NCBI GenBank assembly: GCA_903825435.1
Contig: CAIKAP010000097.1
Location: 10,547 to 74,546 of the forward strand
DNA from: an uncultured Verrucomicrobiota bacterium
GTDB lineage: Bacteria; Verrucomicrobiota; Verrucomicrobiia; Palsa-1439
Direction of reading: 5' to 3'
DNA length: 64,000 bases
The position numbers and the translations under genes are program-made. Position 1 is the stretch's first letter, and every line of letters starts with the position of its first letter. Of this stretch, positions 1,200-60,172 are shown one piece after another. The notes beneath the pieces are model-generated. The model was not told the origin of the DNA. It did no database searches and saw only the letters and a list, made by a program, of their open reading frames with translations.

Positions 1200-1226
1200 T
1201 TCGTGTCTTTCGTGTCTTTCGTGGTT
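1200..1226. repeat. Three copies of a 9-bp tandem repeat (TCGTGTCTT), immediately 5' of the 1242 start
   Basis: Direct reading: tcgtgtctttcgtgtctttcgtgg. Confidence 0.6.
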
Positions 1227-1241
1227 AAATCCTCCGACTTT

Positions 1242-3671
1242 ATGTTTCGGTTTTGTTCCGTCATTTTATTTTTCGTATTCGCCGCCGCCGCATCTGCCGA
1301 GGAAGCGCTCGACGCCACCGACCTCGCCTACATCCGCGAAGCGCTCGCCAAAATCCGGATGACGCCGCACGATCTCGGTTTCAAAAAAGATGTCGCCGAT
1401 TCCGTGTTCGTATTACCGGAAGCGCGACGGTTTCTCCGCGACCCGCTCGCGTTGCCGGTCTTCGGTCGCGACACGATGACCAATCTCCAATCCGCCGCCT
1501 CGCTCGAATCGCTCGCCAATTTTTGTGCCGCGAAATTACACGCGTCGCAACCGTCGCACATACCGGCACCGCACCAAAATCTTCCCGCGCTCGCGCAAAA
1601 AATTTACGACGCGGCGCTCGCGGCGCAGCCGTCATTGCCAAAACCGGACCGCGAGGCATTTGAAGCGTGGGCGCTCGAATTCATCAGCGATAAAAAAGAC
1701 AAGCAGCGTTATGCTCCGGATTTGTTCCGGCGGGACGACGCGCTGGAATTGCAGGACGACGAAGTCGCTAACGCCATTCTCGACGCGGGCGAACGCTTCG
1801 ATTGCGCGGCGATGATGTCGGTGTTCGCGGCGTTGTCGCGCGCGGTGGACGAAACACTCGCCGCGCTCGGCACGAACAGCGTCGCGGAATTTTCCGCGGA
1901 CACACCGCTCGGAAAAATTATCTGCACCGGAGCGTCGCGTCGGACTTTTACCGACGAAGCGTTTCTGATTATCGCCACCGGCAACGACAATTTATTTTTG
2001 AATTCTGCCGGTGGCGCGAACGGTCTCGACGGTCGGCCGGTTTGCGTCGTCATCGCGACGGGACACGGCAACCGGTACGCCAGCACGAATATTGTCGCGC
2101 AAGGCGCGGGGCTTTTCGGTATCGGAATTCTCGCGGATTTAGGCTCAAACTCGACGTTTACGGCGCGACACATCGCGCAAGGCGCGGGCTTGTTCGGCTG
2201 CGGCGCGCTCGTCACCGGTGTAGGCCGACAAAATTTCGAGGCCGACTCGTTTTGTCAGGGCGCGGGATTTTTCGGCGCGGGAATTTTGTGGCAACGCGGC
2301 GGCGACACGGTTTATCGTGCCGCGGAAAAGGCTCAAGGCTTCGGTGGCGTCGCCGGCTTCGGGCTGCTTAGTGATGAGGGTGGCGACGACTCATATTTCG
2401 CTGGTGGCAAATATCCGTGCGCGTGGACGCCGGGACAGTATTTCTCGCTGGCGCAAGGATTCGGATTCGGGATGCGTCCGTTTGCTGGAGGTGGCATCGG
2501 CGTTCTCTGTGACCTCGCGGGCAACGACCGCTACGAAGCGGGTGTGTACGGTCAGGGCGCGAGCTATTGGTACTCGGTCGGGCTGTTGCTCGACCGCGAA
2601 GGCAACGACACCTACAAGGCATTCCAGTATTGCCAGGGCGCGGGCATTCACCTGAGCTGCGGGGCGCTGATTGACTGGAGCGGCAACGACACGTACACCG
2701 CGCACGCCATCTGTCAGGGCGCAGCGCACGATTACAGCGTCGGGATGTTGATTGACCGTGCCGGTAATGACATTTACACCGGTGACAGCACGGCGCAGGG
2801 AGCGGCCATCAATAACTCGTTCGCGATGCTGCTCGACCGTTGCGGTGACGACGTGTACGTCGGCACCGACCCGAAACAATCGCAGGCGTCGGGCCACGAC
2901 GGCGGCAAACGCGAGTACGGCTCGATTGCGCTGTTGCTCGACCTCGGTGGCAACGATTTCTACTCGCAAGGTTGGAAGAACAACTCGACGTGGACGAAAC
3001 CGTTTTACGGCGTAGGAATGGATTGCGAGGCGCGGCCGTTTTACTGGGCGAAGCCGGTGGCGGAGGTTTATCAGACAGAGCAAGTAAAACCGGTTCGGGT
3101 GCGATGCGTGCCGGTGGATGTGCATCATCCGGTGGAGCGGCTGGTGCGTCGGGCGATCAGCGACGAGGGCGCGGAAGCGGCGAACAAGGAGCTGAAAACG
3201 AGGGCGGTGGAAGTGTTGCCGTACTTGTTGACGCGTGTGGACAGTCCGAACGTAATGTTGCGGGTGAAGGCGGAAGAGTTGGTGGATCTCGTCGGCACGA
3301 ACGCGGTACCAATGCTGGTGGAGGCGATCTGCTCGGCGAAAAACGATGAGGCGGTGCGCGTCTGCTGCTATTTTCTGGCGCGATTCGAGACGGCAACGAA
3401 TACGATTCCGTTGGTGCTGCCATTGCTTGGGCGTGAGAAGACGCGAACAACGGCGTTGTACACGCTCGGTCATTTGCGCGCACGCGAAGCGTTTGATGGG
3501 GCTCTGGCTGCCTTCGGTGACAAGAACGAATTGGTGCGGCTGCGCGCGGCGCAGGCGCTAGGACGGATTGGCGACCGGCGGGCGATTCCGTCGTTGGAGA
3601 AGGCGCGGCGGGACGAGTGGTGGGAGGTGCGATTTGCGGTGGAAGAGGCGCTTGCGCGGTTAGGTGAGTAA
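1242..3671 (+). CDS. Secreted repeat protein. It has an N-terminal signal peptide, about a dozen roughly 19-20 aa Gly-rich repeats (AQGAGxFGxG...GNDxY, beta-solenoid-like) and C-terminal PBS-lyase/HEAT-like repeats.
   Basis: Signal peptide MFRFCSVILFFVFAAAASA. Periodic QGAG(L/F)FG...L(L/I)D..GND.Y units. The C-terminus has repeated VRxxAAxALGRIGDxRAIP HEAT motifs. The ATG is at 1242; the six-frame ORF begins at a GTG at 1203. Confidence 0.6.
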   Translation: MFRFCSVILFFVFAAAASAEEALDATDLAYIREALAKIRMTPHDLGFKKDVADSVFVLPEARRFLRDPLALPVFGRDTMTNLQSAASLESLANFCAAKLHASQPSHIPAPHQNLPALAQKIYDAALAAQPSLPKPDREAFEAWALEFISDKKDKQRYAPDLFRRDDALELQDDEVANAILDAGERFDCAAMMSVFAALSRAVDETLAALGTNSVAEFSADTPLGKIICTGASRRTFTDEAFLIIATGNDNLFLNSAGGANGLDGRPVCVVIATGHGNRYASTNIVAQGAGLFGIGILADLGSNSTFTARHIAQGAGLFGCGALVTGVGRQNFEADSFCQGAGFFGAGILWQRGGDTVYRAAEKAQGFGGVAGFGLLSDEGGDDSYFAGGKYPCAWTPGQYFSLAQGFGFGMRPFAGGGIGVLCDLAGNDRYEAGVYGQGASYWYSVGLLLDREGNDTYKAFQYCQGAGIHLSCGALIDWSGNDTYTAHAICQGAAHDYSVGMLIDRAGNDIYTGDSTAQGAAINNSFAMLLDRCGDDVYVGTDPKQSQASGHDGGKREYGSIALLLDLGGNDFYSQGWKNNSTWTKPFYGVGMDCEARPFYWAKPVAEVYQTEQVKPVRVRCVPVDVHHPVERLVRRAISDEGAEAANKELKTRAVEVLPYLLTRVDSPNVMLRVKAEELVDLVGTNAVPMLVEAICSAKNDEAVRVCCYFLARFETATNTIPLVLPLLGREKTRTTALYTLGHLRAREAFDGALAAFGDKNELVRLRAAQALGRIGDRRAIPSLEKARRDEWWEVRFAVEEALARLGE

Positions 3672-19191: not shown

Positions 19192-19643
19192 TGCCCGTCG
19201 CCATCCGCAACCAACAGCGGTTGCACAAAGTCGCCACCGCCCGACTGAAGAAGCTGGCGCAACGCGCCCTCGACCTGCTCGACGCTTCCGACGACAACCT
19301 CAGCCTCGTCATCGTCAACGACACCAGCATCCGCGAACTCAACCGCGAGTTCCACGCCACCGACACCCCGACCGACGTGCTCTCCTTCGACTACGGCGAT
19401 GGCGAACTTGAAGTCATCGTAAACATCAAGCGAGCGTTTGCCGTGGCGGAACAATACCGGAACACGGCGTCGCAAGAGTTGGCGTTGTACGTCATCCACG
19501 GCATCCTCCACCTTCACGGCTTCGACGACCTCACACCCGCCAAACGCCGGAAGATGCGCGCTGCCGAGCGACGACTGCTCAAGAGTTTGGCGGCGGAGTG
19601 TCTGTCTTTGCAAATTAACCGCAAGGCAAGCCGGCCATCATGA
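19191..19643 (+). CDS. ybeY: Endoribonuclease YbeY (rRNA maturation factor)
   Basis: HGILHLHGFDD metal-binding motif. About 150 aa. Sits in the conserved phoH-ybeY arrangement. Confidence 0.9.
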   Translation: MPVAIRNQQRLHKVATARLKKLAQRALDLLDASDDNLSLVIVNDTSIRELNREFHATDTPTDVLSFDYGDGELEVIVNIKRAFAVAEQYRNTASQELALYVIHGILHLHGFDDLTPAKRRKMRAAERRLLKSLAAECLSLQINRKASRPS

Positions 19644-33127: not shown

Positions 33128-34606
33128 ATGACTACCCCGACACCCGACAACCAATCTTTGCCACTGGACGAACTCAACATCGTACCGGAGTGGCTCAAGT
33201 CCCTACCGAAATCCTACGAGCACCACGCCGGCGAGGCACCTGACCGCCGCGATCGAGGCGACCGCGACCGCCGTCCGCCGCGACCGCAAGGTGATCGTCC
33301 CCCACGTCGTGAAGGTGGCGGCCTGCCGCGCCGCGAAGGGCCTCGCCCAATGGAACGCCGAGCGGCTCCGCCCATCGAGCGCCGTCCGCCTCCGCCAGCG
33401 CCCATCGAGATCAGTTTCCTGCCCGAAGAAAAGGGCCTCGCCGCGATGATCGAGACGATGAAACATTCGCCCCGCGCCTACGCGCTCTTCGACGTCGCCA
33501 AGCTCATCCTTAACAAACCCGAACGCCACCTCGTCAAGCTCGCCCTCAAGCCCGGCACCGACGGCACGCGTGCCCCGCTGTTCCTCGCCGTCGCTGACGA
33601 GACAGTCTTCCAGAGCCAGAACGAAGCATTGCGCCACGTTTTCCGCCAGCACGCCGACAAGCTTTGCCGGCAGGAAAAGAAGCCGTGCGACCCGCCAAAA
33701 GGCAACTTCACTTGCGTCAATCGCTGCGGCATCACCGGCGAAATCTTCGGTCCACCAAACTACCACGAGTACCAGACCACCATTGTCCGTTTCCACCAGC
33801 GTCGGCTCCGCCACATGCAGTTCGACGAGTTCAAGTCCCGCATCCAGACCAGCCAGAACCCCGACGCCGTCAAACAGTGGCTCGAGTCTAGAAGCAGCGT
33901 CACCGAGTTCACCTGCCTCCAGTGCACCGAGCCGAAACCGCTCGCTACGCGCGAGGAACTCGAAAAACATATTACCGAGACGCACCTTGCCCAGCTTGTC
34001 ACCAGCGCGCCCGAACTTCAGATCCACGGCGTTGCCAGCCGCCAACAACCGTGGGCCGGGCTGAGCGAAGCGGTGCGCATCGCCTGGGTCAGTGAGTGGC
34101 GGTTCCCGTTGCGCACCGCGCAAACACTCAGCGACCGGCTCCGCCCCGAAGGCTTCCACTTCTTCAAGCACCGCAAAGGCGCTACCTACGTCAGCCACAT
34201 CCGGCCCAAACGCGTTGAGAGCCTCGACGGCCTCAGCGACCAGATCCAGAAAATCATCACCTTCCTCCGCTCGCATCCCGACAGCGTCCGCAAACAACTC
34301 GCCGAGAACCTACAGATTACCGATCCCGACCGGCTACTCGCCGACCTCCACTGGCTCATCACCGAAGGCAGCGTTGTCGAATTCTCCGATGGCCGACTCT
34401 GGGCGCTGGAGAACAAACCGCCCGTCGAAGCCAAACCAGAACCCGCGCCCAAGCGATCGAAGTCAACCCAAGCGACGCCCGCCGAAACCGAGCCAGCGCC
34501 GTGTTCCGTAAATGTTCCGGAGACGCCAACGGACGTACCGGCTGCGCCTGTCGAGCCGACGCCACCGGAAGCCGTTGTTCCTCCGCCCAATGAACCCGGC
34601 GTTTGA
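33128..34606 (+). CDS. Hypothetical protein with an N-terminal Arg/Pro/Asp-rich low-complexity segment
   Basis: Start at MTTPTPDNQ. The RDRGDRDRRPPRPQGDRPPRREGGG... segment is followed by a conserved-looking globular region containing several CxxC pairs (FTCVNRCG, FTCLQCTE). No family recognised. Confidence 0.45.
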   Translation: MTTPTPDNQSLPLDELNIVPEWLKSLPKSYEHHAGEAPDRRDRGDRDRRPPRPQGDRPPRREGGGLPRREGPRPMERRAAPPIERRPPPPAPIEISFLPEEKGLAAMIETMKHSPRAYALFDVAKLILNKPERHLVKLALKPGTDGTRAPLFLAVADETVFQSQNEALRHVFRQHADKLCRQEKKPCDPPKGNFTCVNRCGITGEIFGPPNYHEYQTTIVRFHQRRLRHMQFDEFKSRIQTSQNPDAVKQWLESRSSVTEFTCLQCTEPKPLATREELEKHITETHLAQLVTSAPELQIHGVASRQQPWAGLSEAVRIAWVSEWRFPLRTAQTLSDRLRPEGFHFFKHRKGATYVSHIRPKRVESLDGLSDQIQKIITFLRSHPDSVRKQLAENLQITDPDRLLADLHWLITEGSVVEFSDGRLWALENKPPVEAKPEPAPKRSKSTQATPAETEPAPCSVNVPETPTDVPAAPVEPTPPEAVVPPPNEPGV

Positions 34607-38155: not shown

Positions 38156-38461
38156 TTATTCGGCGGATGGAACTCGATGTGACCAATAATGAGGATGGCG
38201 TTTACAGTGGGCAACGGCGATAACCCAGATGTGGTCGTTCACGAAGAGATAGACGACGATGTAGGGGAAATGCTGAACCAGATAGCGGCGAGTGGCGTCG
38301 CTTCGCAGAGGCCAGCGTTCGGGGAAGTGACGAATGGATTCGACTGAGGCTTCGACTTCGCTGGCAAAATCAAACCCGAGTCCGGGACGTTTGTCTTCGT
38401 AATACGCCACTGCCTCACGGAGTTCGGCTTCGGCCTCGCGAAGGATGGTAACGGAAGTCAT
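38156..38461 (-). CDS. ParE/RelE-family type II toxin
   Basis: EAEAELREAVAYYE...HFPYIVVYLFVNDHIWVIAVAHCKRHPHYW is the typical ParE/RelE plasmid-stabilisation toxin pattern. Confidence 0.7.
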   Translation of the reverse strand: MTSVTILREAEAELREAVAYYEDKRPGLGFDFASEVEASVESIRHFPERWPLRSDATRRYLVQHFPYIVVYLFVNDHIWVIAVAHCKRHPHYWSHRVPSAE

Positions 38462-38688
38462 CGCCGTTGGGATTTAATCTTAGCAAAGACTTCTTCGGCG
38501 GGACTGCCCGTGGCTTGTCCCTCGCGCACCATCTGGACTCGGCGTTGAATCTCCGTTTCTTGTTGCGGACTCAACGTGTAATTGGCTGGATTGTCCAAGC
38601 TGAGGATCAAGTCATGGGCCAGACTTGCCCGTTCGCTGGTGGATAAAGCCAAAGCCTCGTCACGGACTTTCTCCATGGTCGTACTCAT
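38458..38688 (-). CDS. Addiction-module antitoxin (TIGR02574-like component)
   Basis: 76 aa. ALALSTSERASLAHDLILSLD...EIQRRVQMVREG pattern. 4-bp overlap with the toxin start. Confidence 0.6.
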   Translation of the reverse strand: MSTTMEKVRDEALALSTSERASLAHDLILSLDNPANYTLSPQQETEIQRRVQMVREGQATGSPAEEVFAKIKSQRR

Positions 38689-39001
38689 ATTAGTATTTTA
38701 CTGGCAACCTATATTGCGGTCAATCGGTAGATTGGTATCTCTAAATGTGACGGTTTTCCTTCGTAACCGGAGATTCTAGTGATGATGGCTGAGACCGTAG
38801 GAGTGCAATCCCTCGGCCTCGCGGAGCAGGGGAACGGCGAGGGGCAATGCTCCTACGATGACCAGGCTAAAGGGAAGAACGTTCCTTTACGTCGCGACGT
38901 TGAGGGAAGGCTTCCCCTCGATGAGGGAACGCGCTCCCTCGACGAGGGAGAGGTCTCCCTGAATGAGGAAATGCGTTCCCTTGGTCTGGTGGAACATCGC
39001 A

Positions 39002-40603
39002 TCACTGACGTTTGATAGGGCAAAACTCAGTAGAGATTCTCGGTCGGTGTCGACGTCGAGGATCAACCTCGGCATGAAGCGAAGTGGTTACATCCTCTGG
39101 TTCGCCGTCCGATTTCCTCTTCAAGTAGATGTGTTCGAATGTCGCATTGAGTTCTTTGATGTCGTTTTCTCTGCAACCTCCGCTCTTCCTGACGTCAGCA
39201 AGGATTCGGTTCACCATCCCGTCAACATGGGTCAGTTGTCGACTACTCGGAGCGACAAACGGCAACTTCTTGACATAGTTCGCGGAATTATTGGCAGACG
39301 GGTTGATAACGCGCAGGAGTGAAGTGCAGACGGTTGTGTTGCAGAAGCCAAGCAGATAGTAGAGATATTTCTCTTCGTGAGGGAAAACCCCAACGATTGA
39401 CTGGTCAAAAAGTCGCTTCTCCATCAGCGAAGCGGTGACGTTCGTTGACGAGACCATTGGTATCGCGATGCCTTTTCGGAAGTAGAAAGTGGGATTCTGG
39501 AATCTTGCCTTCTTATCGGTCATGTAGTGCCGCACCGCATCGACGCTCCAGTCTAGGAACCAAAGATCGGGTTTGATGAAGCGTACGCCGCCCCCTTTTA
39601 CGATGGGGATGAAGCACTCCCTTCCGGGAAGCCCCTTGAGAGATGGCATGTCGCCGCAGTAGACCGTGTCCGGGGTGATTGCCTGATACTTCGACCCGTT
39701 ACGGATCTCGTTCGACAAGACACGAAGAAACACCTTGTCGTTTCCTGAGTATATTCCGGTCACGCAATCGGCAATGTCTCCAACGCGCACGTCCGCGCTC
39801 GACACGAGTGATGTTAAGTCTCTGTTCTCACTCAGAAACAGAGCATGGTCTATCGCATCAAGCAAGTCGCCCTGTATCACGACCATCCGGTTGACACATC
39901 CGGCACCTGATACGAGTTCCTCAACCTTCTCGTACCCCCAGGAAACCTCAATTTGATTTTCCCTAATGCCGTCGGCTGGTGTAATCCTGCGAAGTGTAAC
40001 GATTGAGAGGTTTGAGTATCCGAAGTTCACGCCTGGGAAGAAGGATGAGGGAAATAGGGCGATGCTTTCAATGCATGAGTCGGTGAGGAGACTATGTCTC
40101 AATGCCGTGTGCATGTGAAGATTCAGGTATGTGTCAGGGATGATGAAGACAAGGCGACCACCTGGCCGTAGCAGGTGAAGGGACTGATATAGAAAGAGCG
40201 CGTAGGTCTCTCGAACATAAAGTCCGGGGTATAGCGACTTCAATCCCTTTCTCTTCTCATACTCCTGCCATGCGCCGTAGGGTGGGTTTGCGATGGCAAA
40301 ATCGTAGTACCCTCCCATGTTCATCTTCAGGAGGAGATTCGGATCGAGGAGCGTGTCCGACTGCGTGACGTGAACACGACTTGTGTTCCCGTATTTACTC
40401 AACAGTCCCTGCGCAGCGGCAGGATTGAATTCGTATGCGTCAACGTCAATATCTCCCTGCGCGGACAGAACGGCATCTACCAAAACCCCGTCGCCTGCGC
40501 ATGGTTCCAACATGCGGCAATGTGGCTTTGGTCGCAACCGAGACACCATGTAGTCTAAGATTGGTTGCGACTTGGTGTAATATGCTTGAAAGGTTGACTT
40601 CAT
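39002..40603 (-). CDS. N6-adenine DNA methyltransferase, gamma class (Eco57I/TaqI-like), with a C-terminal target-recognition domain
   Basis: Motif I LEPCAGDG followed by motif IV IANPPYG. 533 aa. Lower GC than the flanking DNA. Confidence 0.8.
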   Translation of the reverse strand: MKSTFQAYYTKSQPILDYMVSRLRPKPHCRMLEPCAGDGVLVDAVLSAQGDIDVDAYEFNPAAAQGLLSKYGNTSRVHVTQSDTLLDPNLLLKMNMGGYYDFAIANPPYGAWQEYEKRKGLKSLYPGLYVRETYALFLYQSLHLLRPGGRLVFIIPDTYLNLHMHTALRHSLLTDSCIESIALFPSSFFPGVNFGYSNLSIVTLRRITPADGIRENQIEVSWGYEKVEELVSGAGCVNRMVVIQGDLLDAIDHALFLSENRDLTSLVSSADVRVGDIADCVTGIYSGNDKVFLRVLSNEIRNGSKYQAITPDTVYCGDMPSLKGLPGRECFIPIVKGGGVRFIKPDLWFLDWSVDAVRHYMTDKKARFQNPTFYFRKGIAIPMVSSTNVTASLMEKRLFDQSIVGVFPHEEKYLYYLLGFCNTTVCTSLLRVINPSANNSANYVKKLPFVAPSSRQLTHVDGMVNRILADVRKSGGCRENDIKELNATFEHIYLKRKSDGEPEDVTTSLHAEVDPRRRHRPRISTEFCPIKRQ

Positions 40604-51727: not shown

Positions 51728-52813
51728 CTACGTCAACTTAAACCCAAGCGCCGCGCACTTCGCCCGCAAACCGTTGCATGCTGTGCGCAACACCAGCGTT
51801 GTGTTGAAAAACTCCCGACGCACCGGATACTCGGCCCGCAGCTTGTCGAAATGTTTCGGGTTTGCCCGCAACGCCGCGTCATCGCTGTTGATCGCGTACA
51901 CTTGACGGATCACACGCCGCAACACATCCTCGTCGTCCTCGCCGGAGGCGACTGTCACTTCGATGTGCGGCATCGGCGGCGACGGAAGCTGAGGCTGCCA
52001 GGCCGGAACAAAACCGGAACATTTGCAGGCGGCCTCGTAAATCATTCGCGTGCCGTTGACCTTGCCGTCGAAGCTGTAGCCGGCGATGTGCGGAGTGCCG
52101 ATGTCTACCTTCTCCAACAGTTCAGGCAACAAATTCGGTTCGCCCTCCCACACGTCGAGCACCAGACCGTCGAGCTTCGCGGTGAGCAGTGCCGTGTTGT
52201 CAAGCACGGCGCCGCGCGAGGAATTGATGAGAATCCCGCGACGCGGTTCCAGTAGGTGAAACGTCGCATCCGTCCCGGATTTCGTCAGCGGCACGTGTAA
52301 CGTGATGATGTCGGCCTCCGCGACGACACGGTCAAGCGACACGAATGGTCCGCCCTCGGCGCGCTGGCGTGGTGGATCGTTTTGTAGCACCCGCATTCCC
52401 AGCGCCTCGGCGTAGCGGACGACCTTGCTGCCGACGTTGCCGACGCCGACGACGCCGAGCGTTCGCTCGCGGAGCCGGAACCCGGGCCGTTCGGCCAGCT
52501 CCAGCATCGCGGCGACGATGTATTCGGCCACTGAGTTCGCGTTGCTACCGGCGGCGTTGGAGAAACTGATTCCGTGGGCGGTGAGGTAGGGGAGGTCAAT
52601 GTGGTCAAACCCGATCGTCGCCGTGGCGACAAACTTCACGCGGCTGCCGTCGAGCAGCGCGGCGTTGACGGGCGTGACGGAGCGCACCAGCAACAGGTCG
52701 GCGTCACGTATGGCGGCGGCGGTCATCTGGCGGCCGGGGACGAGTGAGACTTCGCCCAGCGGGTCGAACGCCTCGCGGACATACGGGATGTTGGGGTCGG
52801 CAACGATCTTCAT
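51728..52813 (-). CDS. pdxB: Erythronate-4-phosphate dehydrogenase-like D-2-hydroxyacid dehydrogenase
   Basis: MKIV...NIPY N-terminus. NAD-binding GVVGVGNVGSKV. PdxB-like length and C-terminal domain. Confidence 0.75.
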   Translation of the reverse strand: MKIVADPNIPYVREAFDPLGEVSLVPGRQMTAAAIRDADLLLVRSVTPVNAALLDGSRVKFVATATIGFDHIDLPYLTAHGISFSNAAGSNANSVAEYIVAAMLELAERPGFRLRERTLGVVGVGNVGSKVVRYAEALGMRVLQNDPPRQRAEGGPFVSLDRVVAEADIITLHVPLTKSGTDATFHLLEPRRGILINSSRGAVLDNTALLTAKLDGLVLDVWEGEPNLLPELLEKVDIGTPHIAGYSFDGKVNGTRMIYEAACKCSGFVPAWQPQLPSPPMPHIEVTVASGEDDEDVLRRVIRQVYAINSDDAALRANPKHFDKLRAEYPVRREFFNTTLVLRTACNGLRAKCAALGFKLT

Positions 52814-52900: not shown

Positions 52901-54646
52901 ATGTTCATAGCTCACGGAGAAAAAGTTCGGAAACATTCACGGTGGATTCTGGGCGGGATCTTGGTCCTGCTCATTCCCGGCTTCATCATGCTCTTCACGC
53001 AGACCAGCAGCCGCGAACGGCGCGAGGAAGACATGCCGACGTTGCGCGGTAAACCAATTCCCGCCGCCGAGTACGAGAACGTTCGCCAAGACCTGCGCGA
53101 CCAGTACTACATCAGCACCGGACGCGACCTGCCCCAGACGTCGCAGCTGCAGGATGAATTGAAACGCCAAGTCGTGATTCGCCTCCTCCAATTGCGCAAG
53201 GCCCGCGAGCTTGGCATCCGCGCGCCCGACGACGTGTTCGAACAATGGATCCGCAGCCATCCGATCTTCCGTAACGAACGCGGCCAGTTCGACGGCGACC
53301 GTTACCGCCGGTTCATGATCATGCTCAACAACCATCGCATCTCCGAGGGCCGTTTCCTTGAAATCATGCGCGAGGACTTCATCCTTGGCCAGTTACGCGA
53401 CTGGATCGTCGCCGGTGCGAAGGCCACGCCGCAGGAAGTCCAGCTCAACTACGGCCCGATGCATGAGAAGCTCACCATTGACCTCGTCCAGTTCGACATG
53501 GCCGATAACAAAACCACCATCACCGTTTCCGATGCCGACGCCGAGGCTTACTATAAGACGCGAAAAGACACCTTCCGAAAACCCGCCCTCGTAAAAGTTC
53601 GCTACGCCTTCTTCTCGCTCAACGAACTCAAGAAGACTGTCAAAGTTCCCGCCGCCGACGTGGACGCCTTCTACGACGAAAATCGTCCCCGATACCCCCA
53701 AGTCGTCCTCCTCGCCACCAACATCACCGCTGGCGTCACCAACATCGTCACCAGCGTCAATAGTAACGCGCTGGCCACCGTCAAAGCCGACATTCGCGAC
53801 ACCCTCGCCGCCCTTGCCGCCCGCCGCCAAGCCGGCGAACTCGCCCAGCAACTTGCCGTCAAACTCGTTCCCGAAACCGGTGGTCCTCGTCTTGACTTCA
53901 CCAAGACCGCCACCGCCATGAACGCCGTCGTCAAAGAGACCGGCTACTTCTCCCAAGGCGACACCGTCCCCGGCGTCAACGGAAGCGCCTTCTTCGAAAC
54001 CGCCTTCTGGCTCGCCCGCCGTCCCGAGCCGCCGTTCAGCGACGCCATCGAATGTTCCGACGGCTGCTATGTCCTCGAATACCTCGACGGCAAACCGGCC
54101 CGCATCCCAGACTTCGCCGAAGTCAAACAACAGGTCGTTGACCGGCTCAAGACTGAGCGCCGCTACGAAGCCACCCTCCAGCAAGGCCGCGCAGCGCTCG
54201 ACAAACTCCGCCCGTTGCTCGTCACCGGCAAGACCTTCTCCAACACCTGTGCCGAACTCAAACTAAAGATTGACACCTACGGTCCATTCACTGCCTCCGA
54301 TCAGGACTTTGCCGCGCCCGCCGCCGCCCGCATCCAACAAGCGGCCATCGGCATGGCTGTCGGCACCGTCAGCGAATTCATAGCCACTTCCGTTGGTGGC
54401 GAGTTCTTCTTCCTGCGCGAACGCCGTCCTCCCGAAGCGGCCGCCTTCGAGGCCGACCGTGCCAGCATCACCGAGCAAGTTCTCACCCGTAACCGTCGTG
54501 CCCTCTACGATAGCTGGCTCCAGACATTGTTGCAGGAAGAACAAGTCAACTTCGGCAAACCGCGAGCCGTGGCGCCCGCGCCCGCCGCCGAACCGGAAGA
54601 AGAGCCTAGCGAATCGCAGCCCGCGCCGACAAAACCAACGCGCTGA
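52901..54646 (+). CDS. Periplasmic folding chaperone, PpiD/SurA-like (parvulin-type PPIase family)
   Basis: N-terminal TM anchor, then SurA-N-like and PPIC-like regions. Confidence 0.5.
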   Translation: MFIAHGEKVRKHSRWILGGILVLLIPGFIMLFTQTSSRERREEDMPTLRGKPIPAAEYENVRQDLRDQYYISTGRDLPQTSQLQDELKRQVVIRLLQLRKARELGIRAPDDVFEQWIRSHPIFRNERGQFDGDRYRRFMIMLNNHRISEGRFLEIMREDFILGQLRDWIVAGAKATPQEVQLNYGPMHEKLTIDLVQFDMADNKTTITVSDADAEAYYKTRKDTFRKPALVKVRYAFFSLNELKKTVKVPAADVDAFYDENRPRYPQVVLLATNITAGVTNIVTSVNSNALATVKADIRDTLAALAARRQAGELAQQLAVKLVPETGGPRLDFTKTATAMNAVVKETGYFSQGDTVPGVNGSAFFETAFWLARRPEPPFSDAIECSDGCYVLEYLDGKPARIPDFAEVKQQVVDRLKTERRYEATLQQGRAALDKLRPLLVTGKTFSNTCAELKLKIDTYGPFTASDQDFAAPAAARIQQAAIGMAVGTVSEFIATSVGGEFFFLRERRPPEAAAFEADRASITEQVLTRNRRALYDSWLQTLLQEEQVNFGKPRAVAPAPAAEPEEEPSESQPAPTKPTR

Positions 54647-55280
54647 ACAACTGCTCGCACTGCGTCATCCTCTCCGGGTGGAACTGCACCCCGACGAAGA
54701 ACCGCGCCCCCGGTATCATCGCCGCTTCGATGACGCCGTCGTCGGCCCGTGCCACCACTTCCAGCGGCGCCGCGACCTGTCCCACCGCTTGGTGATGCGT
54801 TGAGTTTACCATCCGGCATCCGCACAACCGGCGCGTCCACCTGATGCCGTGTGTCGTCGCAAGTCGGTGATTGGAAATGTCCGGCAACAATGTCCCACCG
54901 AGCGCCACGTTCATTACCTGAAGTCCCCGACAGATCCCCAACAGCGCGATGTCCCGCTCGACAATTTTCCGCACTAGGAACATCTCCATTTCATCGCGCA
55001 CCGCGTCCACCCCCGACAATGTTCGCCGCTCCGTCGCCGTAAGCTTGCGCCCGTACGCGCCCGACACTTCAGTGAAATCGCCACCACCGGTCAATAAAAA
55101 GCCGTGACAGAGTTGAAAGAACGGCTCCAGTGCCGACCGCTCTTTCGTCAACGGCAGCACCACGGCCACGCCGCCCGCGCGTTCCACTGCCTGCGAGTAC
55201 GACACGCCGCAGAACCCGCCGCGTCCATGCGTGCGTTCGAGTGTGACCGCTTCCGGTGTAATGCCGATGATCGGTTTCAT
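54606..55280 (-). CDS. Class I glutamine amidotransferase-like hydrolase (peptidase C26 / gamma-glutamyl-GABA hydrolase family)
   Basis: MKPIIGIT..., catalytic LLGICRGLQ, and HH...QFHPE. Confidence 0.75.
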   Translation of the reverse strand: MKPIIGITPEAVTLERTHGRGGFCGVSYSQAVERAGGVAVVLPLTKERSALEPFFQLCHGFLLTGGGDFTEVSGAYGRKLTATERRTLSGVDAVRDEMEMFLVRKIVERDIALLGICRGLQVMNVALGGTLLPDISNHRLATTHGIRWTRRLCGCRMVNSTHHQAVGQVAAPLEVVARADDGVIEAAMIPGARFFVGVQFHPERMTQCEQLFSALVLSARAAIR

Positions 55281-55349
55281 GGCGTCAGAATACCACGTCA
55301 TGCCAAGAATACTCAATTTCCTGAATGGTTTGTTTCGGCTGCCGTTGCG

Positions 55350-55530
55350 ATAAGAAATGAGGCGCGATTTCAATATCTTGATTGCGAGTTCCCGGTTCTG
55401 GTGCTGGCTGCGCTCGGATTGGCATTGGACGATGATACCGGTCGGGGCGTGCGTCATGCGGTTCCATCTTCGATTTGATTTCGGCGACGCCGTCAACGGA
55501 GGCGACCGAAGTGTGCCGTCGCATCGAGCA
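55350..55530 (-). pseudogene. Remnant of a class-I peptide-chain release factor (RF1/RF2/PrfH-like) domain-3 region. It is frameshifted and lacks the GGQ motif.
   Basis: Frame A reads RRHTSVASVDGVAEI (RF signature RRHTSFASV). About 15 codons later, frame B reads MTHAPTGIIVQCQSERSQHQNRELAIKILKSRL (RF signature [22 protein letters not shown]). The roughly 35 codons that should carry GGQ are missing. Confidence 0.45.
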
Positions 55531-55683
55531 CGGATCGGTAAGGATTCGGGTTTGCGGAGGGATCGTGAATCGTACTCGGTACCGACATTAGTTCGGACAT
55601 TGACAATACGCTGGCTTTCGTTAAGGATGCTGCCATGCAAGCGGGATTGGGAGAACTTTCTGTAACCTGCGGCTCGCCGCGAG

Positions 55684-55787
55684 CTGTTCCGCTGTTCCGC
55701 TGTTCCGCTGTTCCGCTGTTCCGCTGTTCCGCTGTTCCGCTGTTCCGCTGTTCCGCTGTTCCGCTGTTCCGCTGTTCCGCTGTTCCG
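55684..55787. repeat. Perfect tandem array of 13 copies of the octamer CTGTTCCG
   Basis: Direct reading. It is intergenic, between the minus-strand GATase/RF remnant and the plus-strand heptad-repeat gene. Confidence 0.95.
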
Positions 55788-55875
55788 CAATGATTGTGCC
55801 ACGGTAGAATCTCTCCCGGTTTTGCAAGCCGATTCTTTTCCGACCGGCACCCGTGCCACCGACAAGGTTTTATCC

Positions 55876-56496
55876 ATGACGGATAAGACCTTCTCCGTCG
55901 CACCGGTAACCTTCGGCGGCTTGGACAAGCCTTTCTCCACGACGGACAAGACCTTCTCGATGACGGACAAGCCTTTGTCCGGGGCAGAGAAGACTTTCTC
56001 CGTCATAGACAAGCCTTTGTCGGTCGCAAATAAGCCTTTCTCCGTCACGGAGAAGACCTTCTTTGCCACGGACAAGAACAACAAGCGCGACGCGCTCATC
56101 GGATTGCTGCGTCAGCTTGCCGGTTACGTCCAGCAGAACTGCAAGAACGACTTGGCCACATTGTTGTCCAGCGGGTTCGAGGCGGTCAGCACAAGCCACG
56201 CGCAAACCGCGTTGGCCGTGCCGAGCATCGTCAGCGTGGACAACGGCAACAGCGGTCAATTACTGGTGAAGGTCAAACCGGTTGCCAACGCCAAGTGCTA
56301 CGAAGTGCGGTATGCAGCAGTACCGGCAGGCCAAGCACCGGGCGCGTGGCAGAGCGGCAGCCTGTTCACCAACTCTCGCTCCATGCCGCTCAACGGCCTC
56401 ACCCCCGGCACGAATTACACCATCGAAGCGCGCGCCGTCGGCGGCTCGACCAGCTACAGCGACTGGAGTGCCCCCACCAGCCACATGAGTTTGTAA
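55876..56496 (+). CDS. Repeat protein: about 9 imperfect heptads (T/A)(D/E)K(T/P)(F/L)S(V/M) encoded by 21-bp DNA repeats, followed by a fibronectin type III-like domain
   Basis: Translation MTDKTFSVAPVTFGGLDKPFSTTDKTFSMTDKPLSGAEKTFSVIDKPLSVANKPFSVTEKTFFATDK... The C-terminus KCYEVRYAAVPAGQAPGAWQSGSLFTNSRSMPLNGLTPGTNYTIEARAVGGSTSYSDW is FN3-like. The ATG at 55822 is an alternative start. Confidence 0.5.
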   Translation: MTDKTFSVAPVTFGGLDKPFSTTDKTFSMTDKPLSGAEKTFSVIDKPLSVANKPFSVTEKTFFATDKNNKRDALIGLLRQLAGYVQQNCKNDLATLLSSGFEAVSTSHAQTALAVPSIVSVDNGNSGQLLVKVKPVANAKCYEVRYAAVPAGQAPGAWQSGSLFTNSRSMPLNGLTPGTNYTIEARAVGGSTSYSDWSAPTSHMSL

Positions 56497-56529
56497 AAAC
56501 CGAAAAAGAAAACCGAAAGGACCAAATCC

Positions 56530-57282
56530 ATGAAAGCATATCAACAAGTAGTTCCAATCCTCATGATCGCATCGGGAATGCTGACCGGTTGCCAGACAGT
56601 AAGTTACGCGCCGCCCCCTCAAACAACTCAAATACAATGTGCGGTTCCGAAAATAGAACGGTTGGCGGAAACTCCGGAAGCTCAGTCGAAAGGCGATTTG
56701 GAAATAGCGATGGTGCCATCGCTTTATAAAGCTGTTCGTGTTGAAAAAATCAATATCAAGCAAACACAGGCATCGATGGGTGAGCAGGTGGCGCTCGGCC
56801 TTACTGGAGGAGCACAGGGACAAGTGTTTGTTGAAAAGATAACATCCACGCAACTCAAGGCACAACCAGCTCGGCTTGAATTCACTGTCCGGATTAACAA
56901 CAAATTGGATCGCGTGTTCCGTGGGCAAGGATCGGTTGTTCAATTCAATGTTGCCGGGAAGCTGGTTCCGTTTGGAAACACCGACTACAAGGAGTTCATT
57001 GGTGGTATAGTGCCTCCGCGTAATGAAACAGAATTCAAGATTTACGGCCCAACCTTGGACATGATTCCCGGAAAATGCACCATTGGCATTTTTCTTTACG
57101 ACGTTGTGACCGCAACGGATGTGGCAGGGAACACAACCGAAAAACAGAACTATGAATGGTATTTCACCTACACCACCGACCACGTTACTGACACAGCTGA
57201 AATTAGGGTGGAGCGCGGTCTTATGCCGATTGAGCAATATCAGCAGTATTTGCGGCAACGGCGTGTTTCGCAGAACCAATAG
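56530..57282 (+). CDS. Hypothetical lipoprotein
   Basis: Lipobox MLTGC. No family recognised. Confidence 0.5.
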   Translation: MKAYQQVVPILMIASGMLTGCQTVSYAPPPQTTQIQCAVPKIERLAETPEAQSKGDLEIAMVPSLYKAVRVEKINIKQTQASMGEQVALGLTGGAQGQVFVEKITSTQLKAQPARLEFTVRINNKLDRVFRGQGSVVQFNVAGKLVPFGNTDYKEFIGGIVPPRNETEFKIYGPTLDMIPGKCTIGIFLYDVVTATDVAGNTTEKQNYEWYFTYTTDHVTDTAEIRVERGLMPIEQYQQYLRQRRVSQNQ

Positions 57283-57291
57283 GGCAATTCT

Positions 57292-59151
57292 ATGAGCAAA
57301 TTACACCGTAGCGCATGGTGGACACCTACGTCCGCCATGCGCGCGGTTGTAATTGCGTCCGCATTGAGTCAATCCGCTGGACCGGGTTTACCGGACGCAA
57401 TGGCAATCAATCCACCGACAACCACGATACCGGGAAATGGCAGTTCGCCGGGAACGCTGGTGAGTTCGTTGACGCCGACCTTTAGCTGGAACCAAGTCAG
57501 TGGGGCGACCGGTTATGGCCTTTACATTCGCGACATGACAGCAGTAGGTGCGTCGCTCATTTATCCGAATGCCAGAGGGACAACGACCACGCCGTTAACA
57601 GGCAGTTCGTTTACAATGCCTGCTGGGATTCTGGCTGCCGGACACGTGTACCGTTGGAATATGACCAGCTTTATTGGTTCGACTGAAAGCACTGGTGTGT
57701 CTGTTGTTCTCTATTTTCAGACGCCTGTGGGCACAACGATTGCGACAACGGTTACACCAAGCACCGGGAATGCACCGGGAACCGTAGCGGTCAATCCACC
57801 GGCGATCACTATGCCGGGAAATGGCCGTTCGCCGGGAACGCCGCTCAATTCGTTGGTGCCGATCTTTAGCTGGCATCCGGTCAGTGGGGCGAGTGGGTAC
57901 GGTCTTTACATCCGCGACATGACAGCACCGGGTATACCGCTCATTTATCCGAATGCCAGCGGGACAACGGCCAGACCGTTAACCGGCAATTCGTTCACAA
58001 TACCTGCCGGGATTTTGACTGTCGGACACGTGTACCGTTGGAACATGACCAGCTTTAACGGTTCAACGGAGAGCACTACAGTTTCTGATGCCCTCTATTT
58101 CCATACACCTGCGGCTACAGCGCCACCTCCAATAGCTACTTCATCTGGCAATAGTAACCCAACGAAAACAGTTACAGCGAGTCCATCGCCCTCGATTCCA
58201 TCCAATAATTCAACGAGTTCAGGAAAAATGCCTTTTGACACAGTCGTTGGCTCCTTCAATGGGGTGACCGCTTATTCAAATGGCTCGGTTACTACTGACA
58301 GCACTGACCGTATTTCTACCGGCCTTAAGTGGCAATGTGTGGAATTCGTCAGGAGGTACTATTCTACTGTTTATGGAATGAACATTGGGGCAGGCGAGAA
58401 TGCCAGCGGATTTTATTCAAGTGCGGCATCTTGGAAACTGGCTAGCTTCCCGAATGGCGGAACTGTTTCTCCCCAAGTTGGCGATATTTTATGTTTTGCA
58501 GGGGGATCAAGTGGCAATGGTCACGTCGCAATTATTACCGGCGTAAGTTCTACCCAAATAACAGTTATTCAGCAGAATGTTACCGAAAGTTCAAGGGATG
58601 CAGCTTTCCCATATCCGATGAGTGTTACCGTTGGAAAATATACAGTGAGCGGATCAACTCTTGGCACTACCTATCATTGCCAAGGATGGTTGAGAAGACC
58701 TGTAGTTAGTGCATCTGCCGAATCGAAGCCATCTCCTACAAGTGCGATTACACAAAAACAAGCCGTTAGTACCCAATCGGCTCCTTCTGGCGTGAATAAA
58801 ACGAGTTCGTCGCCAAGCAGCATCGGAACGGTAAGCAGCACCGTGAAGCCACCAGCCAAGCCGACAGTTACTCCAACTCCACAGGTAGTCCACAAACTTG
58901 TATTGACGGTGCAAGCAAATCCGGAAAATGCGGGCGTTGTGAAAGGAAGTGGAGCGTATGTCGCCGGTAGTTCGCTAACCGTGAGTGCTACGGCGAACAA
59001 TGGTTACGTTTTCGTTTGCTGGATGGAGAAGTGGCAGCGGGTAAGTCAATCGGCTCAATATCAATTCGAACTTAATGGGAACCGCACCTTGGTGGCACAC
59101 TTCCGTCGAATTCGTGACCAGAACAACGAGGGCAGAGTCGAGAAGCGATAG
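57292..59151 (+). CDS. Secreted CHAP-domain amidase/peptidase. It has two N-terminal tandem repeats of roughly 120 aa (FN3/Ig-like) and a C-terminal InlB-B-repeat-like domain.
   Basis: CHAP Cys (QCVEFVRRY) and His (GNGHVAIIT). The repeats at aa ~38-150 and ~165-277 are about 75% identical. The C-terminus is LVLTVQANPENAGVVKGSGAY...GYVFVCWMEKWQ. Confidence 0.7.
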   Translation: MSKLHRSAWWTPTSAMRAVVIASALSQSAGPGLPDAMAINPPTTTIPGNGSSPGTLVSSLTPTFSWNQVSGATGYGLYIRDMTAVGASLIYPNARGTTTTPLTGSSFTMPAGILAAGHVYRWNMTSFIGSTESTGVSVVLYFQTPVGTTIATTVTPSTGNAPGTVAVNPPAITMPGNGRSPGTPLNSLVPIFSWHPVSGASGYGLYIRDMTAPGIPLIYPNASGTTARPLTGNSFTIPAGILTVGHVYRWNMTSFNGSTESTTVSDALYFHTPAATAPPPIATSSGNSNPTKTVTASPSPSIPSNNSTSSGKMPFDTVVGSFNGVTAYSNGSVTTDSTDRISTGLKWQCVEFVRRYYSTVYGMNIGAGENASGFYSSAASWKLASFPNGGTVSPQVGDILCFAGGSSGNGHVAIITGVSSTQITVIQQNVTESSRDAAFPYPMSVTVGKYTVSGSTLGTTYHCQGWLRRPVVSASAESKPSPTSAITQKQAVSTQSAPSGVNKTSSSPSSIGTVSSTVKPPAKPTVTPTPQVVHKLVLTVQANPENAGVVKGSGAYVAGSSLTVSATANNGYVFVCWMEKWQRVSQSAQYQFELNGNRTLVAHFRRIRDQNNEGRVEKR

Positions 59152-59194
59152 TGACATTAAACGTGAGAAAAGGAACAAACGAAAGGAAAGTAAT

Positions 59195-59578
59195 ATGGCA
59201 GACAAAGTAATGAACAGTAGAACCTCGCTGGGTAGCGATGAGGTTATCAGTCAGGCAGTGCAAGCTTTCACTGCCGGTAAATTCAGGACATCCAGTCAGT
59301 CGGGACGAATCGCAACATTTGACGGGATGCCGCCGATTCCATGGTTCATGCTGTTGCTGACGATCCTTGGATTCCTGTTTTGCGTGATACCGGGGATAAT
59401 CATGTATTTCCTGGTTATTCGGAAGATGCGCCGGTTTCACAGCCTGGTGGTGACTGTCAGCCCTGTGCCCGGTGGTACTGATGTATCTGTGAAATATCCG
59501 GATTGGGCTGGGAATACTGTGCAGCGTTTCATGAATTCTCTCCCGAAAGCGCAAGCAGATTTACCACCGCGCTTATGA
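59195..59578 (+). CDS. Small membrane protein (one TM), hypothetical
   Basis: RBS GGAAAG. TM helix PWFMLLLTILGFLFCVIPGIIMYFLVI. Confidence 0.4.
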   Translation: MADKVMNSRTSLGSDEVISQAVQAFTAGKFRTSSQSGRIATFDGMPPIPWFMLLLTILGFLFCVIPGIIMYFLVIRKMRRFHSLVVTVSPVPGGTDVSVKYPDWAGNTVQRFMNSLPKAQADLPPRL

Positions 59579-59590
59579 TTGGGATTCCTA

Positions 59591-59634
59591 CCTCGGCCAA
59601 TAGGGCGACGCATTAGCGTCGCCCTTGGCCGAGG
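59591..59634. repeat. Extended hairpin CCTCGGCCAATAGGGCGACGC-ATTA-GCGTCGCCCTTGGCCGAGG. It has no U-tract and is a relative of the 1142 palindrome.
   Basis: Direct reading. Intergenic. Confidence 0.6.
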
Positions 59635-59674
59635 GGACTTCGTAGGAAAGTACGTACAAGAAGGAAATTGAACT

Positions 59675-60172
59675 ATGGACTTTAAGAAATTCGCAACATT
59701 CATCGCAATCCTTGGTTTGGCAACCCTAGGTTGGGGTGCTTATCGGTGGGCGACCAACCAGCCGAAAACATTCAAACCGGGTGCAGAAAAACAAGGGATG
59801 TTCGGTTTGCCAGACTTTGCCGCTTCTATGGACAACCTTGTTGCCGCTGACAATGTGCGAATAGAGAATGTGCATCGTGAAGAGATACGCGACAGCGCGA
59901 TCAAGATTATGGTTGCCGGAGGTATTGTGCTCTTTATCGGCCTAGCTGTTTCGGCTTCGGCAAAGACTTCAAGCAATGTTCTCCCATCGGCAACCCCAAA
60001 ACAGCCCATCGCAGCACAGGGCATTGCCTTCCGTAGTCAGCAAATCAATCGGGTGGCAGCGGTAATCGTGCTTGGTGTGATTGCTCTCATCGTTGTCGTT
60101 TGGTTCGTGATGAGTTCATTACCCTCCGATCCCCTTCCATCGCCGAATATGGACAAATCATTCCTGCGGTAG
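59675..60172 (+). CDS. Hypothetical membrane protein (3 TM)
   Basis: Hydrophobic helices. No family recognised. Confidence 0.4.
   Translation: MDFKKFATFIAILGLATLGWGAYRWATNQPKTFKPGAEKQGMFGLPDFAASMDNLVAADNVRIENVHREEIRDSAIKIMVAGGIVLFIGLAVSASAKTSSNVLPSATPKQPIAAQGIAFRSQQINRVAAVIVLGVIALIVVVWFVMSSLPSDPLPSPNMDKSFLR

Follow-up and report, generated by a model that had tools for sequence, protein, structure and literature searches.

A hypermutable octanucleotide repeat in a putative leader frame ahead of an fn3-family gene cassette in an uncultured Verrucomicrobiota bacterium

On a contig of an uncultured Verrucomicrobiota bacterium (CAIKAP010000097.1), of which a stretch of 64,000 nucleotides was analyzed (the window), 13 perfect head-to-tail copies of the octamer CTGTTCCG form a 104-bp tract upstream of a plus-strand gene for a protein with an fn3 domain. 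The tract is a hypermutable simple sequence repeat (SSR), perfect in sequence and polymorphic in copy number in nature, and is probably a contingency locus. We consider it likely that this hypermutable element acts as a switch on the cassette that follows it and, with a probability of about one half, that it does so through a leader open reading frame (ORF) whose frame turns the cassette on or off. The 13 perfect copies claimed in an earlier reading of the sequence (hereafter the original prediction) were confirmed by exact search and by Tandem Repeats Finder (TRF), which reported period 8, 13.2 copies and 100% matches at 55683-55788 with a score of 212. Only two further copies of the octamer occur outside the tract in the 64 kb, and about three copies in total would be expected by chance. 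The tract sits within a 418-bp gap that has a minus-strand ORF of 283 residues on one side and the plus-strand fn3 ORF on the other.

Alleles of the tract were sought on contigs encoding exactly the same flanking proteins, namely the products of the 250-residue lipoprotein-like, the 206-residue fn3 and the 283-residue GATase ORFs. The matching contigs are independent metagenome assemblies of the same organism, with flanks that are base-identical (100%) and tracts that differ. Thirteen copies are present in ERZ27313066, ERZ27313089 and ERZ27313059, seven in ERZ18626762 and ERZ18624653, and four in ERZ27313068. For contigs available without DNA, six copies can be deduced in ERZ1426631 from an intergenic distance 56 bp shorter, and 13 in two further contigs from the 13-copy spacing. 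Alleles recur across independent samples: two BUCK21 samples share the seven-copy allele, and the 13-copy allele is found in at least three samples of the ERZ273130xx series. The tract also interrupts assembly, as seen from an N-gap inside it in one scaffold (L003) and from two contigs of other studies that stop within it (L004 and L005). The slipped-strand, hypermutable site put forward in the original prediction is thus supported by the count of repeats across other assemblies (13, 7, 4 and, by deduction, 6 copies between identical flanks) and by the contig breaks inside the tract. Every one of these alleles comes from short-read metagenome assemblies, and the breaks within the tract could also be taken as a sign that the copy-number differences are artefacts of assembly; this is judged highly improbable, because the final k of these assemblies, 141, exceeds the 104-bp length of the tract and because identical alleles turn up in independent samples. 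By reasoning alone, a 32-bp allele could not arise by collapse at k = 141 without supporting reads. A scan of JGI metagenome contigs for (CTGTTCCG)3 returned 74 loci, none with the flanks of the window and none with an fn3 relative; it shows only that similar octamer tracts are present in many unrelated organisms and is of no use for allele counts. The tract can be followed as it changes copy number across lake and groundwater metagenomes, and it provides a practical marker for strain-level population dynamics of uncultured Verrucomicrobia.

The effect of copy number on the reading frame was followed by simulation from an ATG at 55635, which opens a frame through the repeat; translation of the SSR would give a VPLFRCSA repeat. 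When the number of units (n) is 1 mod 3, as with 13, 7 and 4 copies, the leader ORF stops at TGA 55791-55793, 3 nt past the repeat, and when n is 0 mod 3, as with six copies, it stops at TAG 55805-55807, 17 nt past the repeat. When n is 2 mod 3, the frame stays open into the fused fn3 ORF, for a product of 281-289 residues. A weak terminator-like hairpin (Table 1) is located downstream of both short-frame stops and falls inside the long frame. The original prediction had allowed for frame dependence through a TTG start at 55822; copy number cannot shift the frame from there, since that codon is downstream of the tract end at 55787, and the idea of frame dependence survives as plausible through ATG 55635 upstream of the tract. 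The AAGGA within a candidate promoter ahead of the leader ORF may alternatively be a Shine-Dalgarno site, 7 nt before this ATG. On the other strand, a 497-residue ORF (54606-56099) is open at n = 1 mod 3 (13, 7 and 4 copies) and runs through the antisense of array and repeat into the GATase ORF with its release-factor remnant. The deduced six-copy allele breaks this pattern, and the open frame at the other three alleles is probably due to chance (about 1 in 9).

Database relatives of the fn3 protein number 638, come mostly from Verrucomicrobiota and are typically 209 residues long or about 247 with an N-terminal extension. The family is defined here by a helical N-domain followed by a C-terminal fn3 domain (~209 residues) and by an array of 21-bp period upstream, and the window locus is one of its members. 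TRF was run on 80 family loci taken from species-representative genomes, and seven loci other than that of the window proved to have a perfect 7- or 8-bp repeat some hundreds of bp ahead of the gene. The units are GTTCGCG (10.6 copies, L024), AGCGCAGG (3.9 copies, L028), AGCGTCGG (5.8 copies, L031), AACCGCGC (6.2 copies in L035 and 8.2 in L057), GCGGTCA (10.1 copies, L038) and CTCACCG (13.1 copies, L052). Wherever the 21-bp array was detected (5/7 loci), the short repeat is upstream of it, and the conserved upstream order in the family is 7/8-bp repeat, 21-bp array, fn3 gene and variable cargo. Repeats of 7 or 8 bp are 15-fold enriched between -900 and -350, with 7 in 38.5 kb vs 8 in 659 kb elsewhere (Poisson P = 6e-7), and those within this zone are longer than those elsewhere in the loci. 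Given that the units are unrelated in sequence, the tracts arose independently at one position, and such repeated independent origin at one spot, ahead of one gene family, is an apparent signature of selection for mutability. Among relatives with an intact gene, the closest is L018 (Kiruna2_bin-0915); in the same place it has (GACA)4, within a 31-codon upstream ORF led by GGAG. No unit length is divisible by 3, all being 7 or 8 nt with the addition of the 4-nt GACA in L018, and the plus strand of every listed unit, as read from the units, is free of stop codons.

Natural alleles were also recovered for the L028-type organism, which is represented by six contigs from different samples that are 100% identical from a point ~600 bp ahead of the repeat to one 1.7 kb beyond the fn3 start. 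Their sole difference is the copy number of AGCGCAGG, which is 3.9 in two contigs and 4.9 in four. At 3.9 copies the locus is in the long frame and at 4.9 in the short one, and both states are found in nature. A third organism with allele data was sought, the sole usable protein being P0096 on a single contig.

Each of the eight loci with a repeat has a start codon 18-126 nt ahead of it, from which a frame runs through the repeat. At no fewer than five of these loci the start is an ATG at -18 to -54, which in L028 is preceded by AAGGAG at a distance of 6 nt. One frame stops 0-19 nt past the repeat at each of the eight loci, and another is open for 140-300 codons, across the array, to the region of the fn3 start. 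Stops are closer to the repeat than expected, with one at most 19 nt from the repeat end at 8/8 loci vs 0.40 at control positions (P = 7e-4) and at most 4 nt from it at 5/8 vs 0.16 (P = 0.004, or 0.014 with the two paralogues counted once). Across the 21-bp arrays, open frames are commoner on the plus strand (86/144) than on the minus strand (60/144; P = 0.003), and the long frame often ends at or beside the fn3 ATG, for example with an ATGA overlap in L018. Strong terminator hairpins (GGCTGCC-N6-GGCAGCC and a T-run) are present in L028 and L057 56-70 nt past the repeat, where the short-frame stops precede them and the long frame covers them. A strict terminator search over ~40 family loci gave none in the other SSR loci covered. 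The hairpins of L028 (5164-5187) and L057 (5147-5168) are near-identical, together with TTTTTGTTTCC, in two different genomes, and L035, which is paralogous to L057, lacks a 97-bp segment that includes the terminator hairpin. Location of the repeat within the coding region of the fn3 gene itself was rejected as a rule for the family, as the canonical start is preceded in most loci, at a distance of 6-300 nt, by an in-frame stop.

Four things were observed directly, namely the tract, the polymorphism of its copy number, the geometry of the frames and the recurrence of repeats at this position, and a mechanism can be proposed that would connect them. Slipped-strand gain or loss of 8-bp units would change the reading frame of the leader ORF from ATG 55635. 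In the short frames (n = 1 or 0 mod 3), the structured leader would be left untranslated, and the cassette would be off or low via termination or polarity. In the long frame (n = 2 mod 3), ribosomes would cross the hairpin and the 21-bp array and enter the fused fn3 ORF, and the cassette would be on via ribosome transit or translational coupling. The transcription start, the translation of the leader and the effect on expression are, in this scheme, deduced from the sequence. On a more tentative level, the module as a whole (a leader ORF with a hypermutable 7/8-bp repeat, a leader rich in terminators or hairpins, and a 21-bp-phased palindromic array) might constitute a so far undescribed, genetically programmed attenuator of multi-copy, cargo-swapping cassettes in free-living Verrucomicrobiota and Acidobacteriota, and would then be a case in which contingency loci evolved repeatedly away from host-adapted pathogens.

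The proposed switch has elements in common with several known systems. The opa genes of Neisseria, a multi-copy family, have CTCTT pentamers in the 5' coding (signal-peptide) region, and the copy number sets the frame on or off. Similar to opa, the repeats described here have a unit length not divisible by 3, lie close to the start of an ORF and set its frame by their copy number, and paralogous loci each have their own copy number, as with the one unit shared by L035 and L057. Unlike in opa, the repeat lies in a leader ORF that is not conserved and not in the frame of the mature protein, the units are 7-8 nt long, the host is a free-living lake and groundwater Verrucomicrobium, and only a minority of the family loci have a repeat. 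In leader-peptide attenuators of the trp/his type, ribosome position decides on read-through. The arrangement of a putative short ORF and then a terminator-like hairpin, weak in the window and strong in L028 and L057, would be analogous, whereas the decision here would be set genetically by a repeat-driven change of frame and not by tRNA charging, and no antiterminator alternative was identified, no analysis of alternative structures having been made. Palindromic iterons of the lambda ori are located inside gene O, and plasmid iterons measure 17-22 bp; the phased palindromic units of the present arrays, at 21 bp (two helical turns), resemble such tandem sites for a dimeric DNA-binding protein. 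Unlike iterons, the arrays are chromosomal, occur in multiple copies and in every case precede an fn3 gene; neither a cognate binding protein nor a replication function was found. Simple-sequence contingency loci are textbook features of host-adapted pathogens (Neisseria, Haemophilus, Campylobacter, Helicobacter) and, to our knowledge, have rarely been documented in free-living environmental bacteria; nothing specific was found in the literature on phase variation in Verrucomicrobia, on 21-bp arrays or on this architecture. If true, the leader model would unite slipped-strand switching and leader-peptide attenuation in a way that has not been described. The gene family is itself uncharacterized, combining an fn3 head gene and a 21-bp palindromic array with swappable cargo of a secreted, tail-fibre-like or lysin-like nature.

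Several observations weigh against a frame-controlled leader ORF. All four assembled alleles (13, 7, 4 and 6 copies) are in short-stop frames, for which the chance probability is ~0.2, and translation of the fn3 ORF could begin at an ATG of its own (55876), whatever the repeat. The candidate promoter was missed by a consensus scan, its second hexamer having 3/6 matches and falling below the threshold, strong terminators follow the repeat at only 2/8 loci, and only ~10% of the family loci carry a 7/8-bp repeat. The long leader frame is without the codon-position pattern of a conserved protein, the differences between L035 and L057 being distributed over codon positions as 65/58/47 in the leader/upstream region and as 35/11/17 in the fn3 gene, and its openness could in part be a by-product of stop-free repeats in GC-rich DNA. 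The fn3 gene of the window is, moreover, incomplete. Its product aligns with relatives only from 'DKNNKRDALIGLLRQLAGYVQ' onward, and the conserved N-terminal ~68 residues of the family ('MSQLRVLLGFTNAPDH...') are missing, with the array region in their place; the C-terminal 140 residues are 47-83% identical to those of 172 loci. The array is joined in frame at codon ~66 of the fn3 gene, through a junction microhomology (CGGAyAAGA) common to unit and gene, and the comparison identifies the window gene as an evident deletion derivative fused to the 21-bp array. As such, it may be decaying. The truncation and fusion, the occurrence of all observed alleles in 'off' frames and the lack of a repeat at most family loci are what one would also see if the tract were a neutral, unstable microsatellite in a decaying locus, varying in reality and to no regulatory consequence. 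We hold this to be improbable in view of the independent recurrence of long perfect 7/8-bp repeats at the same relative position, the consistency of the frame geometry across loci, and the fact that the truncated gene has been kept 100% identical in at least nine contigs from several studies.

Copy number may also act by length and not by frame, the repeat being a 'rheostat' in a promoter or 5' untranslated region (UTR) for graded tuning of transcription or mRNA processing. Precedent is found in Haemophilus influenzae hmw1A/hmw2A, where (ATCTTTC)n in the transcribed 5'-UTR acts via a long repeat/G-rich hairpin that is cut by RNase III, with graded expression as the outcome (PMC12721329; PMC8262952). 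The resemblance includes a 7/8-nt unit in about ten or more copies, a location upstream of the annotated gene start, a large cargo operon of secreted or adhesin-like nature and natural copy-number polymorphism, and the range of ~4-13 copies is likewise similar to hmw1A (PMC12721329). The observed changes are large (13 to 7, 6 or 4) and not ±1, and the divergent gene arrangement in the window permits promoter effects. Unlike the hmw repeats, however, the tract lacks a significant fold: the RNA of the region 55600-55900 folds no better than shuffled sequence (z = -0.07), which argues against a long repeat-arm hairpin of the RNase III-sensitive hmw type; no inverted repeats were found in 55400-56200, and Rfam had no match in the tract region. 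A rheostat, which we consider unlikely although somewhat less so than a neutral microsatellite, would also leave unexplained the stops abutting the repeat, the absence of any unit divisible by 3 and the open frames on the plus strand, all of which are features where stops and frames appear to matter. The suggestion of the original prediction that the tract alters spacing in a divergent promoter is not supported by the related loci, where upstream neighbour and orientation vary and the placement of the repeat with respect to the fn3 gene stays the same.

The GGAACA core of the octamer had further been proposed as a reiterated binding site for one DNA-binding protein. The shared motif is real, as the heptamer CGGAACA is common to the tract, to 1049-1117 and to 52004, and its 11-bp-phased form, CGGAACA-N4-CGGAACA, has 9 sites at ≤1 mismatch in the window vs 0.06 expected. 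This dispersed element resembles the sites bound by response regulators of the winged-helix type. The tract holds CGGAACA 13 times, and by our own estimate the sharing of a given heptamer by chance has a probability of about 1e-3. The idea that the tract is a reiterated site for the protein recognizing the dispersed motif is nevertheless unsupported and very improbable: the dispersed sites are phased by 11 bp and the tract by 8 bp, no 11-bp-phased matches are found inside the tract, the 11-bp motif is absent from related fn3 loci, and homologous loci have unrelated units in the same place (GTTCGCG, AGCGCAGG, AACCGCGC, GCGGTCA and CTCACCG). The dispersed CGGAACA repeat sites are located at 1050-1116, 1243-1260, 1712-1729, 19447-19464, 34502-34519 and 52004-52021, some of them inside coding regions. 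They include a ~70-bp inverted CGGAACA cluster (1049-1117) upstream of a HEAT-repeat ORF (1203-3671), and three perfect copies of TCTTTCGTG (1197-1223) are placed directly before, and overlap, the GTG start of the same ORF.

Downstream of the tract, the 'heptad-repeat' protein of the original prediction turned out to be a 21-bp, mostly palindromic DNA array, of a kind found upstream of intact family members. A 21-bp-period array was detected by TRF 150-780 bp upstream of the fn3 gene in 44/66 loci with enough upstream sequence. The unit varies by lineage and is mostly a palindrome, as in the window (ACGGAsAAGryCTTsTCCGT), L092 (TTTTCCTTCCAAGGAAAA) and L037 (CGGATATTGCAATGTCCG). Arrays of 3-20 units occur at about -150 to -780 from the fn3 start in Verrucomicrobiota and Acidobacteriota (L019-L095), always with a period of 21. 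The array region of the window has a much stronger RNA fold than its shuffled counterparts (z = -4.7), and pairing covariation within array units is modest (85 Watson-Crick pairs vs 64.5 expected). In-frame stops before the fn3 gene and the lack of codon-position bias between L035 and L057 indicate a DNA- or RNA-level array and not a conserved protein. A conserved heptad protein was rejected on these grounds as well as on the presence of arrays upstream of intact genes, the lineage-specific near-palindromic units, the internal frame breaks in some arrays and the in-frame stop that most loci have between array and fn3 start. Two over-extended gene calls (P0036 and P0105) have the same heptads upstream of the true start, and many contigs of metagenome-assembled genomes break just upstream of the fn3 family gene.

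The fn3 head protein was modeled with a pLDDT of 85 as a three-helix N-domain followed by the fn3 domain, and a fold search in PDB and BFVD matched only generic fn3 domains. Its designation as a surface protein in the original prediction was not upheld, the protein being without a signal peptide. A related protein on a 1294-bp JGI contig (P0002) is identical to the window protein over its first ~140 residues, array-encoded part included, and has a diverged fn3 domain, which suggests recombination between family copies. The coordinates of the features at the window locus are collected in Table 1.

Table 1. Features of the repeat locus and its surroundings (window coordinates)
Feature	Position	Strand	Basis
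Release-factor C-terminal remnant fused to Peptidase_C26/GATase, 283 residues	54606..55457	-	Pfam, alignment
Possible promoter: TTGACA 55600-55605, 17-nt spacer, AAGGAT 55623-55628	55600..55628	+	Read from the sequence; inference only
Putative leader ORF containing the repeat, 52 residues at 13 copies, ending at TGA 55791-55793	55635..55793	+	ORF list, frame simulation
(CTGTTCCG)13 simple sequence repeat, hypermutable element	55684..55787	+	TRF, exact search, alleles in other assemblies
Two stops just 3' of the repeat: TGA 55791-55793, TAG 55805-55807	55791..55807	+	Sequence, frame simulation
Weak terminator-like hairpin, 6-pair stem and T-rich tail, downstream of both short-frame stops	55817..55831	+	Terminator scan
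21-bp-period array, ~10 near-palindromic units, consensus ACGGAsAAGryCTTsTCCGTs	55876..56085	+	TRF, unit analysis
fn3-family ORF, 206 residues from ATG 55876 (or TTG 55822)	55876..56496	+	Pfam fn3 (C-terminal), alignment with 19 homologues
Low-GC cargo: lipoprotein-like 250-residue ORF, 619-residue CHAP/InlB-repeat protein, two small membrane proteins	56530..60172	+	ORF list, Pfam, GC

The cargo island has a GC content of 47-53% (56500-60100), compared with 58-63% around it. The 619-residue cargo protein contains an InlB B-repeat and a CHAP domain as well as tandem fn3-like repeats. Cargo differs among the family loci and comprises collagen-like proteins resembling tail fibres, PA14/TSP3 giants, proteins with signal peptides and a CHAP lysin-like protein. 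A phage origin of the family was considered and rejected, as there are no IMG/VR relatives and the PHROG matches are limited to collagen repeats, CHAP and generic fn3. With respect to defence systems, PADLOC gave no meaningful matches. On the other side of the tract, the first ~45 residues of the minus-strand 283-residue ORF match a class-I release factor (positions 253-296 of release factor 2), the GGQ part being absent, and the rest is a complete Peptidase_C26/GATase. This fusion is identical in all related contigs and lies outside the conserved module, and it is probably what remains of a rearrangement at the border of the inserted cassette.

Elsewhere in the window, at 38870-38985, five palindromic units of 21 bp (GAGGGAA-N4-TTCCCTC) form a second array, which is unrelated to the first. 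It precedes an antitoxin/toxin-like pair on the minus strand (38156-38688) by ~180 bp and closely follows the 3' end of a methylase-like ORF (39002-40603), and it, too, yields pseudo-heptads on translation.
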